Assembly (NCBI GenBank): GCA_963815195.1
Contig: CAWFGE010000015.1
Span: 128,001 to 192,000 of the forward strand
From: an uncultured Planctomycetaceae bacterium
GTDB taxonomy: Bacteria > Planctomycetota > Planctomycetia > Planctomycetales > Planctomycetaceae
DNA length: 64,000 nucleotides
Direction of reading: 5' to 3'
Part shown: in pieces, positions 6,798 to 13,366 of the stretch
Numbering within the stretch: position 1 is the first letter of the stretch
How the letters are laid out: each line of letters starts with the position of its first letter
The notes under the pieces: model-generated
The model's input: only the letters and a program-made list of their open reading frames with translations
Databases searched by the model: none
Told to the model about the DNA's origin: nothing
Program-made: the position numbers and the translations under genes

Positions 6798-8557
6798 ATG
6801 CGTCGTCCCGCCCAACTCGCAGAGCAGGTTATCGGGAAAGCCGTGGCGGAAGCCACACGGGGCTGCGGCGTTTGGCCGCTGCAACCGCATGTGGTGGCGT
6901 TGGAGCCGCCGTTCGATCCCTACGATCGATACGAGGTCACGGCGTGGGACTGCTTCGTGAACGGCTGGGACGCCGGATGGGAGAGCAGCCAGATCAGGCG
7001 GTTGCTGCCGACGGAGCCGATCGACGTGTGGAGCGAAGTGACGTTGCCCGCCGACATCGACCAGCTAACTTCAAACACCCGTCGGCTGTCGGTGGCCCGC
7101 TTCCCCGAGGATGAGGCGACGGTGGCTAAAGCCGAGCAGTTGCTGCGGGCCCTGCCCCATCTCACTCAGCCTGTTTCGTTTGAAATCGTGGGGCTGGGGC
7201 CGATGCCGGAATATGACAGCGCAATGATGCAGCAGTTGGCGCGGGACCAAATGCAAGGACGAGCCGTGAATTTACAAACCGCCATCTGCGGTTGGAAACC
7301 GCCCCGGATCGTCACCCAATTCGCGGGCGCCCTCCCGGATATCCGCCGGCTGGAGAGGTTGCTGCTGGCTCATTATCCCAACTCCGCCGTGGTGTTGGAG
7401 GAAATCATGTCGGATGACCCGATGGACAAAGTGGACGTGGGACGGGAGGGCTACGGCGCAAGTTTGGCCTTGCACGGCGGGTATTGTCTGCCCCTGCGCA
7501 CGGTGACGCGGATGGACCCCGATCCTTTGACTGTTCCCATCTCGGCGATGGATCATTTGGGCAAAGAACAGTGGGCGGCGGTGCGGGTTCGGTTTCAGCG
7601 GGCCCTCGCGCCGTGGGAGTCGCTGTTGCGAACGGCCTTGACCGATCCCCACAAGCCAAAGCAGATGCTAATCTCGGATATCAGCGAACGGCACTTGGCC
7701 AGCAAGTTCGCCTCGCCGCTGTACGCCGTGGGCATCACTCTCACGGCCTCGACCAAGAGCGTCTTCCGGCAACTGGTGGGCTGGGCAACGCAGTTCTCCA
7801 CGCCGGACCATGAGTTGTTCTGCAACGACGGCGAATGGGTGAACGGGCAGTTGTCCGACGAAGAGCGGCAAAGCTTGTCCTGGACATTGACGTTCCGGCA
7901 GACCCATCGGCCGGGGATGCTGCTCAACTGCCAGGAACTCTGCGCGCTGGTGCATCTGCCCAATGCCACCGTGGTCAGCCAGCGATTGGAAACCGTCAAA
8001 ACCCGCACCCGGCCCGCTCCCCCGCCCCAGACGCCGCCGGGCGTGATTTTGGGCGAGAACGTCCATCGCGGCAAACGCCGGCTGGCCATCGTCCCGGAAG
8101 AACACCGCCGCCTGCATTGCTACGTGGCGGGAGCAACCGGAACGGGGAAATCGACGCTGCTGCTGAATGGCATTCTGCAGGACATCGAAGCGGGGCACGG
8201 CGTGGGCCTGCTCGATCCGCACGGGGATTTAATCAAGGATGTGCTCTGCCGCATTCCGGATCATCGGGTCGATGATGTCGTTCTGTTTGATCCCTCCGAC
8301 AGGGAGTTTCCGTTCGCTCTCAATATCTTTGAATCGCGGGGCGAACAGGAACGAGATCGGGTGATCGCCGAGTTCTTGATGGCCCTTCAGAAATATTTCC
8401 CGAGCAGTTGGGGGCCGCGATTGCAGCGGACGCTAACCTTTACCCTTCTGGCGGTGATGGAAGCACTCCCCCACCCCACCTTGGACGATGTGGAGCGAAT
8501 GTTGACCAATCCCGCCTTCCGGCGGCAAATCAGCGCAAAACTCACCCGCCAGCGGAT
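6798..8557 (+). pseudogene. HerA/VirD4 (type IV coupling-like, DUF87) ATPase truncated by an IS21 end
   Basis: HCYVAGATGTGKST Walker A, GVGLLDPHGDL, SWGPRL. Reading runs into the IS21 terminus at 8558; the Walker B half is missing. Confidence 0.8.
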
Positions 8558-8630
8558 TGTTCGGCGTCAATTAGCTCTGCTCTTTAGCGTCAATTAGATT
8601 GACCGTGCAAGAGGGAGAAATCGACGGGCA

Positions 8631-9083
8631 TCAGCCTTTGGAGCCAGGCTTTGACCCGTCCGAATCGGCCGAGTTTTTCTTGTTTTTCTTGGCGGTTTCC
8701 AAGCGGTAGCTGGGGATGTTCAACTCGATGATGATCGAGTGATGGATCAAACGGTCGATGGCCGCCGCGGTCGTCATGGGATCCTTGAAGATTTGCTCCC
8801 ATTGAGAGAAAGGCAGATTGCTGCTGATCAGAAGGCTGCCCCGTTCGTAGCGTTCGGCCAGGAGCGTGAACAGCACTTCCATCTCCTCGCGGCTCTGTTG
8901 AACATAGCCCAAGTCGTCGATGATCAGCGCTTCGTAGCGGCTGAGCTTTTTGATCCACTTCTCCAACCGCAGGTCGCGTTTGGCCCGCAGGAGTTCTTGG
9001 ACCAGCATCTGGCAGGTTGTGAATAACACCGTGCGGCCTTGACGCGCGAGTTGGTCGCCGAGTGCGGATAACAGATTCGTCTT
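8631..9083 (-). pseudogene. istB: IstB helper ATPase, C-terminal half
   Basis: KTNLLSALG...LIIDDLGY...LLAERYERGS...SNLPFSQW...AAIDRL; begins exactly at the Walker A Lys codon. Confidence 0.9.
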
Positions 9084-9086
9084 GAC

Positions 9087-11162
9087 TCAGCCATTGTTGT
9101 GCCCCCTTGGGATAGTGATTTGCTCGGTTTCGTGATTTTTGAGTTTTAGCATGGCGTCTTTAACCTCCTCAGTTTTGGGAAACAGATAGCACCGATAAAT
9201 TGGATCGACAGAAACCACGATCTGTCTTTGCTCAATTTTATGATACATCCAGGATATGTTGTGCCCGATTTCCTGAGCCATTTCCGCGGCGGTCCAGGCA
9301 TGGGGCAGGTTCTTTGCACGCGGGCTTTTGATCCGGTAGCGATGTCTTAACTTGTTCACGATTTGCGAGGTGAATTGTTCGCCACGACAGGGATGATGGC
9401 CTTCGCGATTGAGATCCGCCGCGATCATTTCACTCGACCGGCCTTCGCTGGTTTCTTGCCGGATGCGTTCCACGATGTGCTCTTCCAAGTCCGTGTGTTT
9501 CATTGAAAAACGCCGTAGGAGAGCCGACGTTTCGGTCACCGAACCGCCGGCCCAGACCATGCGAATTTGCACCAGCCCATCCGATTGCCGGTGAAGATTG
9601 ACTCCCGTAATCATCGTCCGCAACAACGACTTCTTCGCCTCCCAAGACAACTCGGGCCAGAGTTCGGGAAGCTGCCGCCCGACATCCGCGAAGGCGTCTC
9701 GCAAGGACTTTGGTACGCGGATCGGTTGGGGAATTTCTCGGCGGGCATCCGCCAGGTTTTCTTCGGCTTGCTTTTGCGCCAACAAAGCCGATTCCCATTT
9801 CTCTTCCAGACTGGCCGCAATCAAACGGTTCTTGGGATCGACACAGTCGTATTGTTGCTCGGCCCGATGGGCGGCGTATTGCAAGCGCCCGACGTCTTGC
9901 TCCAAATGCCGAACCACGTCCGCATGCGTGCGAGCCCTTTCGGCGGAGAGTTTCTCCAACACATCGATCTCGGCAGGCCGCAGCACTTCAAAGAAAGCTT
10001 CCGTCACCGCCTCGTCGATCTTGTTGCCGCCCAAGTACTGGCAGGATCGTTGGGCGTAATGCCGATAGCCAGAATTGCATGAGTATTGAAAGCGGTTCTC
10101 CTTGTAATTCACTCCCATCGTTCGACCGCATTTTCCGCAGCGCAATAAGCCCGTTAACAACGCGCAGCCGTTGCGGATGGCTTGCTTGGCGGCGAGTCGT
10201 TGTTGGATGCGGAGGTTGTTTTGAGCGATTCGGCGTTGGTTGTCTTCGTACTGCTCCCAACTGATATAGGCCGGGTAGATGCCGGGAATTAAGACCGACC
10301 ATTCCGCTTGGGGCCGGCGCGTGCGACCCGTGGCAGGACGACCGGGAATTCGTAGCGTGGGATTGACTTGCCGACGCCCATGAGCAAACGCGCCTGCATA
10401 AGCCGGGTTATGCAGGATCGAGCCCAACGAAGCGGCCGTGGCTTCTCTCCAAAACACTTCGCCCGCATAAAGGCCCGAAACTTGGCGCCGGGGAATCTTC
10501 AAATTTTTCTTGGCCAGGAACGTCAAGACTTTTTGAATCGTGCCCAACTCCACGAACTTGTCGAACACCAAATGCAATCGCTTTTGAATGCTCAGATCGG
10601 GATCGAGCATTACCGCCTTGTCCAGATTGCGGACCAAGCCCGTCGGCAAGTTTTGCACCAACTCGCCCCGCGCGGCCTTCGACAATCGACCCGCGTCCAA
10701 TCGCAATCGGAGGCTATGGAGTCTTGCCGAAGACATCGTGCCCTTCAAGCCTAAGAGGAGCCTGTCGTTGAAATCCCGTGGATGATACAACCCATCCACA
10801 TCACCGATGAGTGTGTCAAAGATCGCACACAATTCCAACAGTCGATGCCAATCCACATCGTTGCGGGAAAGCCGTGAAACTTCATAGCCCAGAATGATGC
10901 CGACCTTACCCAAGCCGACGTCGGCGACCATCTGTTGAAAGGCCCCGCGTCCCGCCGTTTGCGTGGCCGATTGCCCTTGATCATCCTCCAGGATGCTGAC
11001 TTGTTCCGGCTTCCACCCCAACTCCAACAACCGGGTTTTCAAGGCTCGCTGGTTGTGGGCACTCTCTTGGTTTTTCTCGACCTGCTTCGTCGTGCTCTGA
11101 CGAAGATATACGATCCCGCGGCGATTCAAATGGCTGGTGCTGACTTTCATCGATCCGTTCAT
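9087..11162 (-). CDS. large serine recombinase (resolvase + recombinase + Zn-ribbon + C-terminal extension)
   Basis: IVYLRQST catalytic motif, EVSRLSR, ILHNPAYAG and LLRCGKCG zinc ribbon; intact 691 aa. Confidence 0.95.
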   Translation of the reverse strand: MNGSMKVSTSHLNRRGIVYLRQSTTKQVEKNQESAHNQRALKTRLLELGWKPEQVSILEDDQGQSATQTAGRGAFQQMVADVGLGKVGIILGYEVSRLSRNDVDWHRLLELCAIFDTLIGDVDGLYHPRDFNDRLLLGLKGTMSSARLHSLRLRLDAGRLSKAARGELVQNLPTGLVRNLDKAVMLDPDLSIQKRLHLVFDKFVELGTIQKVLTFLAKKNLKIPRRQVSGLYAGEVFWREATAASLGSILHNPAYAGAFAHGRRQVNPTLRIPGRPATGRTRRPQAEWSVLIPGIYPAYISWEQYEDNQRRIAQNNLRIQQRLAAKQAIRNGCALLTGLLRCGKCGRTMGVNYKENRFQYSCNSGYRHYAQRSCQYLGGNKIDEAVTEAFFEVLRPAEIDVLEKLSAERARTHADVVRHLEQDVGRLQYAAHRAEQQYDCVDPKNRLIAASLEEKWESALLAQKQAEENLADARREIPQPIRVPKSLRDAFADVGRQLPELWPELSWEAKKSLLRTMITGVNLHRQSDGLVQIRMVWAGGSVTETSALLRRFSMKHTDLEEHIVERIRQETSEGRSSEMIAADLNREGHHPCRGEQFTSQIVNKLRHRYRIKSPRAKNLPHAWTAAEMAQEIGHNISWMYHKIEQRQIVVSVDPIYRCYLFPKTEEVKDAMLKLKNHETEQITIPRGHNNG

Positions 11163-11265
11163 GCTCCAGTTCCTCCGTTAGAATGACGACGATTTGCTGG
11201 ATGATCCGCTGCTGCTCTGGAAGAGTCAGACGGTTCCACACCTGGTCCGTGGCAATGGGTGACAT
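10981..11265 (-). CDS. possible small overlapping accessory ORF (MSPIATDQVWNRL...)
   Basis: GGAGGG SD-like sequence upstream and an amphipathic helix (VWNRLTLPEQQRIIQQIVVIL); overlaps both neighbouring genes. Confidence 0.4.
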   Translation of the reverse strand: MSPIATDQVWNRLTLPEQQRIIQQIVVILTEELEHERIDESQHQPFESPRDRISSSEHDEAGREKPRECPQPASLENPVVGVGVEAGTSQHPGG

Positions 11266-11558
11266 CGGCTTCCCTCCGAGAAAGAATATCCCGAAAGGTA
11301 GTCACCAAATCCTGGAGCGCGTCCGGGGTCAGACAGGAAGTTTTTTGGGGAGGAGCGGTGGAAAGGTTCGTGCTGCTGACGTCGATGTAGGTCATCTCGT
11401 CAGGAAAAATCTCGACTTGATAATACTGACGATAACCTGGCAGGCGGGCTAAGCCGAACAAATCAAATGTTCGGCCATAAAGCGGATGGGCCGGATCGAT
11501 GACGGTGATCTCACCGCGCGATAACTGAGTGACCAGAGGTGTCTTGTGATGGTCGGAC
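11159..11558 (-). CDS. recombinase-element accessory protein (Y4bD/DUF5372-like), lacking a start codon in the integrated state
   Basis: ITVIDPAHPLYGRTF motif; stop overlaps the recombinase start (ATGA). No in-frame ATG/GTG/TTG between the att junction and the motif. Family name is from memory. Confidence 0.65.
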
Positions 11559-11919
11559 CTTTCCCGTCCCCGGTTGGCCGAGAAAACACACATTGAAATG
11601 CTGGGCAATCCACTCCCCGCGGGCCAACTCCAAAATCGTTTGTTTGTGGAGGCCGGGCACCGCTTGGAAGTCGTAATCCTCCAGTCCCTTCTCCACCGGA
11701 AAGTTCGCATTGCGGAATCCGGCTGTTCAAGGCATTGGTCTGCCGGGCCGCGACCTCCAGTTCGGTCAACCGGAGCAGGTACTGCTCGAAGGTCTGGTTC
11801 GAGGCACTCGCTTCGCGGGCCAACTTCTCGTACTCGGCCAGGATTGTCGGCAGCCGGAGTTGCTTGAGGTTGGCCTTGAGGAGCATCTGGTTGGCATCGT
11901 GTTTCGGGTTCGGGGACAT
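11559..11919 (-). pseudogene. istB: IstB helper ATPase, N-terminal half (frameshift ~11710)
   Basis: LLKANLKQLRLPTI...YLLRLTELE, then EKGLEDYDF...NVCFLGQPGTGK. Confidence 0.9.
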
Positions 11920-13366
11920 AATCGGAATCTCCTTGGAAGGAGGACAGGAACTGGTCAAAATGGCTCAAGCTCGGACAGGGAACTTGAACCGACAACACGC
12001 CGGGGTGTTCGCACTCGATCGGAGTGGAAATGCCCTCGGACGATGTTTCCGACAGGCGGAGGGCGGAGGCTTCCACGCGGCGAATGATGCGATCGGCATC
12101 GGCTCCTTCGGGGCCGCGAAGTTGCTCGATCGCCGCCTGCACGCGCGAGAGCGGATGCTCGGCCAGCAACTGCAGCACCCGCACGAATTGCCGCACGCCC
12201 GCGTGGGGACCGTGCCGCCTTTCCAAACGCTCGCGGAGTTCGCCGAACACGGCGGGCAGCTTCCAATCGCGATACACGTTCGCATGATCCAAAGCCGCCG
12301 GGCGACGCGTTAATGTGGTCAAATAGTGCAAAGGATCCAGCACATCATCGCCCGCGTGATAGCTCCGTTCATGGACGGCGATGACGGTTTCGTTCAGCAC
12401 AATCTCGACACGATCCACATAGCCTTTGACCGTCACCGTTTGAAACGCGGCGTGGCGAGGCACGCTGTAGTTCACATTGTCGAACCGCGCGAACTGATAC
12501 TTGTTGACCTTCGCCGATTGCCGGATGCAGGGATCAAACCGCGGCACGGGAAGCGGAGCGGATCGCTGTTTTTCCTCCGCGAAGCGTTCCCCGATCGTTT
12601 GCGTCTGGCCGCTGCTGCAGCGAGTCGTGTTCCTTCAAGCAACACTCGCGAAGATAAGCATTGAACTCTTCCATGTCCTTCACGCGAGGCACCGGCGTGG
12701 ACCATTTCCGCTCCAACGTCTTCACGCGGTTTTCCACCACCGGCTTTTCATTGCCCCGCGCGGGCATGCAGAACAGCGGATCGAACACGTAATGACTGGC
12801 GAGCGCCTGGTAACGCGGATTGATCTTCCGCGAACGCCCGGTCAATAACTCGGTGGCCACGGTCGTCGGATTGTCCCACCAGACTTCTTCCGGCACGCAG
12901 CCGAAAAAATCAAACGCCTGCGTCATGCCCTCCAAGATCGCTTCGGTTCGCTGCGTCGGCAGCGCCACCGCGAACGGAGCGTTGGAGTACGACCAGACCA
13001 GGATCAGCACGTTGACCTTCCGGCGGCCGTCGGGGAAGTCCACCGAAATCTCGCCAAAGTCGGCTTCGATTCGCTGGCCGGGCCGATGATCCAAGGGGAT
13101 GAACGTCTCGGCATGGTTTTTCCGATGCCGATTCACGAACCGCCGCACGGCATCATAGCCGCCCGTGTATCCGTCTTCGTCCCGGATCCGCTCGAAGATC
13201 CGCATCCGCGTATGCCGCTGCTTGGGCGGCGCGGATTCATCCTCTTTGAGAATCTCCAGGATGCGATCGTGAAACCGTCCCAATTGGGGAGCCGCTTGCT
13301 GCCGCCGTAAGGCGTCGGCTCGCCCGCGCCTCGCAAGACCTCACGAATCTTTTTTCGCGAGTGATG
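11920..13366 (-). pseudogene. istA: IS21 transposase IstA (N-terminus lost, frameshifts)
   Basis: PGQRIEADFG, EVWWDN, GNEKPVVE (DDE) and ARFDNVNYSVP, spread across ORFs 12534-13283 and 11159-12547. Confidence 0.9.

Follow-up and report, generated by a model that had tools for sequence, protein, structure and literature searches.

A minimal serine-recombinase element in istB with an accessory gene that is probably whole only when the element's ends are joined

How can a gene be expressed if its start codon and its body lie at opposite ends of the mobile element that carries it? The question is raised by a 64,000-nucleotide stretch of DNA, analyzed here as a whole and referred to as the window, from an uncultured Planctomycetaceae bacterium (assembly GCA_963815195.1, contig CAWFGE010000015.1, positions 128,001 to 192,000 of the forward strand). 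In this window, an istB gene of the IS21 type is interrupted by a mobile-element unit of 2478 bp (9082 to 11559, minus strand, with one crossover AA counted). On balance, we consider it probable that this unit is a minimal cut-and-paste element of the large serine recombinase (LSR) type, in which a small accessory gene is whole only when the ends of the element are joined, be it in a circle or in a head-to-tail joint.

The split accessory gene and its rebuilt junctions

The element is made up of three overlapping genes on the same strand: a DUF5372-like accessory gene, a third small open reading frame (ORF), referred to here as ORF2, and the recombinase gene. The body of the accessory gene (11560-11159, minus strand; 133 codons plus stop) contains no ATG, GTG, or TTG before codon 34, and this earliest candidate within the element, a TTG, lies behind an invariant D-P-x-H-P-L motif. 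Its stop codon overlaps the start of the LSR gene as ATGA. A start module is found at the far end of the element (9084 to 9108, minus strand), where it also forms the P arm of the attachment site, attP; it consists of AAGGGGG (9108-9102), an ATG (9094-9092) that follows after 7 nt, and three further codons up to the crossover, with the ATG sitting in the last codons of the LSR gene and overlapping the LSR stop. When the ends are joined at the shared AA, the two copies of which are located at 9082-9083 and 11560-11561, this ATG comes to lie in frame, four codons before the junction codon, and the result is an accessory ORF of 137 codons. All coordinates that the initial annotation, made from the sequence alone, had given for the LSR, the far-end Shine-Dalgarno (SD) motif and ATG, the start-less accessory body, and the ATGA overlap proved accurate, and rebuilding the unit bore out its proposal of a 2478-bp circle with a 137-codon ORF and no intergenic DNA; its description of a fully coding ring was correct but incomplete, as there are three overlapping genes rather than two.

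The LSR (691 amino acids; 11162-9087, minus strand) matches the Pfam models Resolvase (E 6e-16), Recombinase (E 3e-17), and Zn_ribbon_recom (E 3e-10), all three with scores above their cut-offs. It is 53-70% identical to seven relatives, and residues Y19, R21, Q22, and S23 are invariant in the eight sequences; the top match in an NCBIfam search, XisF, scored 67.7 bits, far below the cut-off of 375. ORF2 (10984 to 11265, minus strand) is read in a different frame and has its own ATG (11265-11263), with GGAGGG approximately 6 nt upstream. Its first ~38 residues are conserved, its remainder overlaps the LSR gene, and it also overlaps the tail of the accessory gene. No known family was found for ORF2 in Pfam or NCBIfam, and its best score in the Atlas (0.81) provided no lead.

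If the far-end ATG is the start of the accessory gene, it should recur when the ends of related elements are joined, and the initial annotation had named exactly this recurrence as the way to check its proposal. Family 1, the members of which target istB, comprises eight complete elements of 2475-2496 bp (those of the window, L026, L029, L032, L033, L034, L051, and L052; L030 has the same sequence as L029). The accessory frame is open across the rebuilt junction in all eight, and the codon at position -4 from the junction codon is ATG in six elements, GTG in one (L033), and CTG in one (L052). A further ATG is present at -13 in L029, L032, L033, and L052, with AAGGGAG, AAAGGAG, or AAGGTGAGG 9-10 nt upstream; in L052, this ATG, nine codons further upstream than the CTG, is accompanied by AAAGGAG, and each of the eight elements has at least one ATG or GTG. 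With two extra complete elements judged by eye (L095, with ATG, and L096, with GTG and an internal stop in its LSR gene), the start position in family 1 (n = 10) is occupied by ATG in seven cases, GTG in two, and CTG in one, and the frame is open in all of them. The expected recurrence was thus observed in 9 of 10 family 1 elements as ATG or GTG at this position, the tenth having its ATG at -13, and in all 13 loci of the second family described below.

Excluded from the junction counts were loci on contigs that stop before the right end (L011, L023, L024, L025, L027, L028, L031, L035, and L036), loci with an interrupted LSR gene (L012 and L053), a locus with a truncated accessory gene (L013), a locus without an accessory-like ORF by the pattern used (L097), and loci with a broken or interrupted LSR gene (L098, L100, L101, L102, and L105). 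L098 and L100 were still used for boundary comparison; a comparison of L102 with L103 resolved no boundary.

The second family was found in another planctomycete order, in which 24 of 121 genomes carry the accessory family, often in multiple copies. Its LSR is 37.7% identical to that of the window. Here, the ends were set independently of the reading frame, by comparison of copies with different flanks and, for L054, by piecing its flanks together into an unbroken rve-type transposase motif. All 13 loci examined, which come from 9 genomes, joined in frame and without a stop, each with an ATG and an SD-like motif; the ATG precedes the crossover by 11 nt in 12 of them and by 14 nt in L114. Since the script sought an ATG at those distances, presence, phase, and openness were tested jointly. 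The right junction of L113 reads AC, not AA. The 11-nt distance is common to families 1 and 2, and, as judged by eye, the T and G of the family 2 ATG are not mirrored in the other arm of attP, which, on this comparison of letters, speaks for a real start. Taking both families together, all 23 joins have an open, in-phase frame. A single in-frame ATG would not be beyond chance; a start that recurs equally far from the crossover in two families whose LSRs are 38% identical is.

That the accessory frame is a coding frame follows from a frame test, in which synonymous and nonsynonymous pair counts, as well as stops, were determined per frame in an alignment of 17 elements. Over columns 0-60, directly after the junction, the accessory frame shows 698 synonymous and 832 nonsynonymous pairs and no stops; the corresponding figures are 126 and 1437, with 8 stops, for the second frame and 189 and 1359, with 17 stops, for the third. 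The accessory frame is likewise free of stops over columns 0-285, where its synonymous change far exceeds that of either other frame. The accessory frame is thus read from the junction onwards. From approximately column 315, conservation shifts to the frame of ORF2 (columns 315-420), the ATG of which is kept in 17 of 17 elements, together with a GGAGG-like motif 5-8 nt upstream; ORF2 is recognizable in family 2, too. Accessory relatives down to 37% identity retain the frame, and the accessory tail is open up to the ATGA overlap, or to within at most two codons of it, in all 17 elements.

Target codon and genomic copies

Both halves of the interrupted istB gene match PF01695 (IstB_IS21), and they meet at profile positions 104/106, in the Walker-A motif G-x-G-K-T. 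The C-terminal part (8631 to 9081, minus strand; E 9e-36, profile positions 106-236) restarts at the G of the lysine codon (9081) and continues as T-N-L-L-S. On the other side, the N-terminal part (11562 to 11958, minus strand; profile positions 61-104) has a 1-base frameshift near 11716, and among the Walker-A codons G-Q-P-G-T-G-K (11559 to 11579, minus strand), it is the lysine codon that receives the element, at its AA. The host genome (8.87 Mb, 25 contigs) holds eight full copies of the element and one truncated at 681 bp, which are 99.4-100% identical. The full copies have identical ends, with four types of left flank (two of them ~98% alike) and four types of right flank, all of which are IstB-like P-loops. 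Since the right junction reads TCAAG or TCAAA depending on the target, the exchange takes place at the dinucleotide AA of the lysine codon; the initial annotation had therefore recognized the shared core but, with AAG as the crossover, had drawn it one base too long. AA is common to both junctions, and there is no target duplication past this 2-bp core. Uninterrupted versions of two targets are present in the same genome (C9 near 15061 and C23 near 241689), contigs of metagenome runs X1 and X3 continue past 9083 into an uninterrupted P-loop, and relatives elsewhere (3 genome-contig loci, 14 metagenome-contig loci, and others) are all located at the same point of an IstB-like P-loop. The insertion is, in short, a conservative exchange at AA into istB.

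A search of a phylum sample of 401 genomes found the accessory gene in the window's own genome alone, and no relative of the element was found among viral contigs.

Several peculiarities of the local copies deserve mention. The copies at C15, C16, C8, C7 (two), C18, C12, and C23 show mixed pairs of left and right flanks (A-a, A-b, A-c twice, B-a, C-d, and C-c), which reflect either recombination between copies or assembly across repeats; flank type A is always found with the element (5/5). The LSR gene reads through in three of the eight full copies (C15, C18, and C12), the others showing 1-base length differences, and the accessory ORF is intact in all nine genomic copies. The N-terminal istB part of the window is frameshifted near 11716, where the contig of run X1 is one base shorter, and near 12540 istA breaks into two frames. 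These breaks in the LSR, istB, and istA frames are either real decay or assembly indel errors. A 92-bp stretch with 81% identity to the right end of the element (C6:1454-1545, L010), beside right-flank type c, is possibly the end of a diverged copy. Finally, the IS21 copy of the window is adjoined by an ORF of 599 amino acids (6798-8597, plus strand) with the P-loop A-G-A-T-G-T-G-K-S.

The targets of family 2 are also other mobile genes. L054 and L041 are inserted in an rve-type transposase gene, at the motif E-[KR]-F-I-x-[ST]-I-K, and the target flanks of L098-L100 (genome G849) read, by eye, like D-x-x-x-[FY]-F-D-[ST]-I, which we take to be a reverse transcriptase motif. Three loci have an unusual structure. 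In L113 (genome G806), an ORF2-like peptide is encoded in the LSR frame upstream of the LSR start (~1524-1690), which could be a fusion or a frameshifted copy. In L012 (1476-3830) and L053 (reverse strand, from ~1860 onwards), the LSR gene is cut just after a conserved L-L-L-G-L-K; the ~2.35-kb piece that interrupts L012 carries a serine recombinase gene on the opposite strand and a DUF5372-like ORF at its edge and would be an element of this kind nested in another of the same kind.

The accessory protein and its predicted complex with the recombinase

Searches of Pfam and NCBIfam returned nothing for the accessory protein, and none of 17 members matched the Pfam model of DUF5372 (PF17342), even at E values up to 10. 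The structure model, with a predicted local distance difference test (pLDDT) score of 67 overall and 75-90 over residues 11-70, consists of four strands and a helix; residues 1-101 are folded in it, and the poorly conserved tail (residues 102-133) is modeled as disordered. Foldseek found no match in the PDB at E ≤ 0.001, the weak hits being SH3/KOW/Tudor-like barrels. In the Atlas, on the other hand, 29 of the 30 nearest clusters were DUF5372, with a score of 0.94. A comparison by hhalign with DUF5372 members from related genomes yielded a probability of 96.7% (E 4e-10) with two bridging sequences in the set, which had been found using a relative of the query; with the four Pfam-found DUF5372 members alone, the probability was 50% (E 1.6e-4). 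DUF5372 and the accessory protein share an HPL.GR motif and a C-terminal helix. Judging by these resemblances, the accessory protein appears to be a remote DUF5372-like protein and not a member of the family. A literature search returned no paper mentioning DUF5372.

The Pfam-level DUF5372 genes of loci L055, L057, L060, and L061 lie beside transposase fragments and have a conserved I-A-P-D-C-D-G upstream of their first possible start; they may share the start-less layout.

Modeled together with the LSR, residues 1-102 of the accessory protein gave complex scores of 0.74, 0.75, and 0.75, and the best control scored 0.00; at least 66% of the contacts recur between runs, with a partner pLDDT of at least 70. 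The predicted complex thereby passes the tool's mark, to which 116 of 157 solved complexes but just 2 of 215 mismatched pairs had risen in the tool's own test, figures that are a rough guide here, with our own alignments used. On the LSR side, the predicted interface comprises the zinc ribbon (341-346), the start and return of the coiled coil (393-408 and 461-468), and the domain behind it (481-544); on the accessory side, it comprises residues 23-28, 39-57, and 73-96. Residues 23-28 would be missing from any protein begun at the internal TTG. These models make it most likely that the accessory protein docks onto the LSR around its zinc-ribbon domain and at the coiled-coil base, the site of directionality factors, and a predicted complex at that site supports a role together with the recombinase.

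Competing explanations and known systems

Several observations weigh against an accessory gene that is whole only when the ends are joined, and many of them would fit a different explanation, namely, coincidence: the far-end ATG and purine run would be binding letters of attP and last codons of the LSR gene, and the protein would be made from integrated copies, via a start in the flank, a noncanonical start, or the internal TTG. With everything set out below taken into account, we regard this as unlikely. The main caveat comes from attP itself. The rebuilt sites show the imperfect dyad symmetry about the core that is expected of the ~50-bp attP of a large serine recombinase element; attP is an imperfect inverted repeat about AA, with 12-22 of 32 positions symmetric per element. 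In all eight family 1 elements, TGG at -10 to -8 and A..GG.G.A at -25 to -17 are symmetric with the P' arm, the arm that encodes the conserved T-P of the accessory protein. Since the T and G of the ATG lie in the symmetric TGG and the SD motif lies in symmetric letters, both are explicable by recombinase binding alone. The SD argument of the initial annotation is correspondingly weaker than it seemed: AAGGGGG is present, but most of its letters, like TGG, are symmetric in attP. In family 1, this explanation leaves out a single letter of the start codon, its first, which doubles as the second base of the penultimate LSR codon. In L052, the start position is occupied by CTG, and the elements are related, so that the counts given above are not counts of independent events.

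The integrated state provides further grounds for caution. Between the nearest upstream stop and the junction, an in-frame ATG, GTG, or TTG is present in 10 of 17 relatives, at varying distances; in L051, ATG is found at the junction codon itself. The window's copy has an in-frame ATG in its flank, 11 codons before the junction and lacking an SD motif; the five copies with a type A flank, the window's included, all have this ATG, as well as a TTG 16 codons upstream that does have an SD-like motif. Some in-frame start at the flank or junction is thus available to six of the nine local copies, and when relatives and local copies are taken together, to 16 of 26 integrated junctions, 6 of them with an SD-like motif; transcription of the IS21 operon would run into the element. 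The accessory protein could therefore be made from some integrated copies. Neither a 50-mer nor a 28-mer of the attP junction is present in the genome assembly, and no circle joint was found in the contigs of runs X1-X4, contigs being a form of data that drops rare forms; no RNA run was listed as containing the stretch. A promoter scan, limited to sigma-70-like sites and not extending to the circle joint itself, found none on the coding strand and two on the noncoding strand, versus 1.5 expected. Lastly, if the accessory protein were a classical excision factor, its synthesis from the ring alone would be paradoxical.

What speaks against coincidence, in our view, is that the start is not conserved in integrated copies but is conserved across the joint. 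Starts in the flank are located at differing distances; they are lacking in 7 of 17 relatives (in one of the loci examined, L033, the contig ends after 41 codons) and in 3 of 9 local copies, those with a type C flank, in which no in-frame start is found back to a stop 43 codons upstream, and none of those in the 17 relatives has an SD-like motif. The first base of the start codon is arm specific in family 1 (A in six elements, G in one, and C in one, with mostly T in the mirror position; n = 8) and, with the two extra elements, is A or G in 9 of 10 despite the mirror T. Also against it are the unmirrored family 2 ATG at the same 11-nt distance and the open, in-phase frames in 23 of 23 joins, and use of the internal TTG would delete an invariant motif that is placed at the predicted interface.

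Two other ways of translating the integrated gene were tried and rejected: as part of an istB fusion, because the two frames are offset by +1 in every element, and by reinitiation after the stop of truncated IstB, because there is no start codon nearby and the stop is not conserved.

A quite improbable alternative is a one-way lock, in which the accessory protein would be obligatory for recombination in both directions and an integrated element would be stuck unless a circle or a lucky copy supplied the protein in trans. The layout does match that of the suicidal integrases that are partitioned on integration (PMC8371274), binding to the LSR is predicted, and the accessory ORF is intact in nine of nine copies versus LSR read-through in three of eight. 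However, the LSR frameshifts may be assembly errors, and those large serine recombinases that have been studied integrate without a partner (PMC11722253). That the accessory frame is not a gene at all, its conservation stemming from DNA sites or from the overlapping ORF2 and LSR genes, is scarcely credible: the last ~45 accessory codons are indeed poorly conserved and overlap the better-conserved ORF2 frame, but the stop-free columns 0-285 with by far the most synonymous change, the retention of the frame down to 37% identity, the well-modeled fold of residues 11-70 (pLDDT 75-90), and the remote likeness to a Pfam family all contradict it.

Returning to an accessory gene completed by the joining of the ends, its workings may be pictured as follows. 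With attP placed within the first codons of the rebuilt accessory gene, integration would part the start codon and ribosome-binding site from the body, and excision would create a ring in which the gene is whole; by binding the LSR, the accessory protein would report the state of the element to the enzyme. We would guess that ORF2 and the LSR, both of which retain a start of their own, may be read from IS21 transcripts and allow excision and that accessory protein made from the ring then biases the LSR towards integration, after which the gene would be split again. The recombination-state switch put forward in the initial annotation is strengthened by the conserved start across attP and the predicted complex with the LSR and tempered by the in-frame starts that some integrated copies offer. 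A bolder scheme is possible, if doubtful: fully coding serine-recombinase transposons of 2.4-2.5 kb would be widespread and would sense their own topology, with a ring-only protein at the directionality site flipping the reaction from excision to integration, ORF2 acting as an always-available excision factor, insertion aimed at those catalytic codons of other mobile elements that are most conserved (the IstB P-loop, the rve transposase motif, and reverse-transcriptase-like motifs), and precise excision restoring the interrupted genes.

Should the joined form be the sole source of the accessory protein, directionality would be governed by a self-contained switch that stems from gene topology, not from a regulator, and this switch would sit in an autonomous recombinase element that is among the smallest known. 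It would explain how a 2.5-kb element without spare DNA controls both excision and integration and would add a new kind of small partner protein for serine integrases, enzymes that are used in genome engineering. The choice of target would mean that mobile elements reversibly parasitize others at invariant codons, those of IS21 helper ATPases here and those of transposases and reverse-transcriptase-like genes in relatives. Our literature searches found no description of this arrangement, with a start across attP, and a search for serine recombinases in connection with IstB or IS21 returned no relevant paper by title or abstract; Tn7088 was considered, and its description (PMC10763512) does not bear on the arrangement. 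New here are the DUF5372-like accessory protein, its predicted complex with the LSR, the conserved ORF2, and the eight full genomic copies.

Four known systems invite comparison. In the SSV-type suicidal tyrosine integrases of archaeal viruses and plasmids, attP is located inside a gene of the element, and that gene is whole only in the circle (PMC8371274). The element described here likewise has its attP inside a coding gene, with the crossover four codons into the rebuilt accessory ORF; whereas the tyrosine integrase itself is cut midgene in the SSV type, the serine recombinase is intact here, and it is a small partner gene that loses its start signals and four codons. For Tn4451/Tn4453, with their large resolvase TnpX, the joint of the circle reportedly creates an expression signal, to go by the title of a report by Lyras and Rood from 2000. 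Those elements resemble the present one in being small and moved by a large serine recombinase, and here, too, the joint of a circle would create an expression signal; in Tn4451, however, the joint is the promoter of the recombinase, while here it would complete the coding sequence of another protein. In mycobacteriophage BPs and its relatives, the repressor gene loses its 3' end on integration, and the shorter protein is active. There, attP lies within a regulatory gene and the integrated and free forms encode different products, an arrangement termed integration-dependent immunity (PMC4557955). Unlike in BPs, it is the 5' end, including the start, that is removed here. The directionality factors of large serine integrases, finally, are represented by SprB of SPbeta, which is placed at DNA-binding domain 2 (DBD2) and the base of the coiled coil (PMC11722253). 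The accessory protein differs from known factors of this kind in that no sequence likeness was noted and it is modeled as a small SH3-like barrel with a helix; like SprB-type factors, however, it is a small protein encoded beside the recombinase and is predicted to sit at DBD2 and the coiled-coil base.

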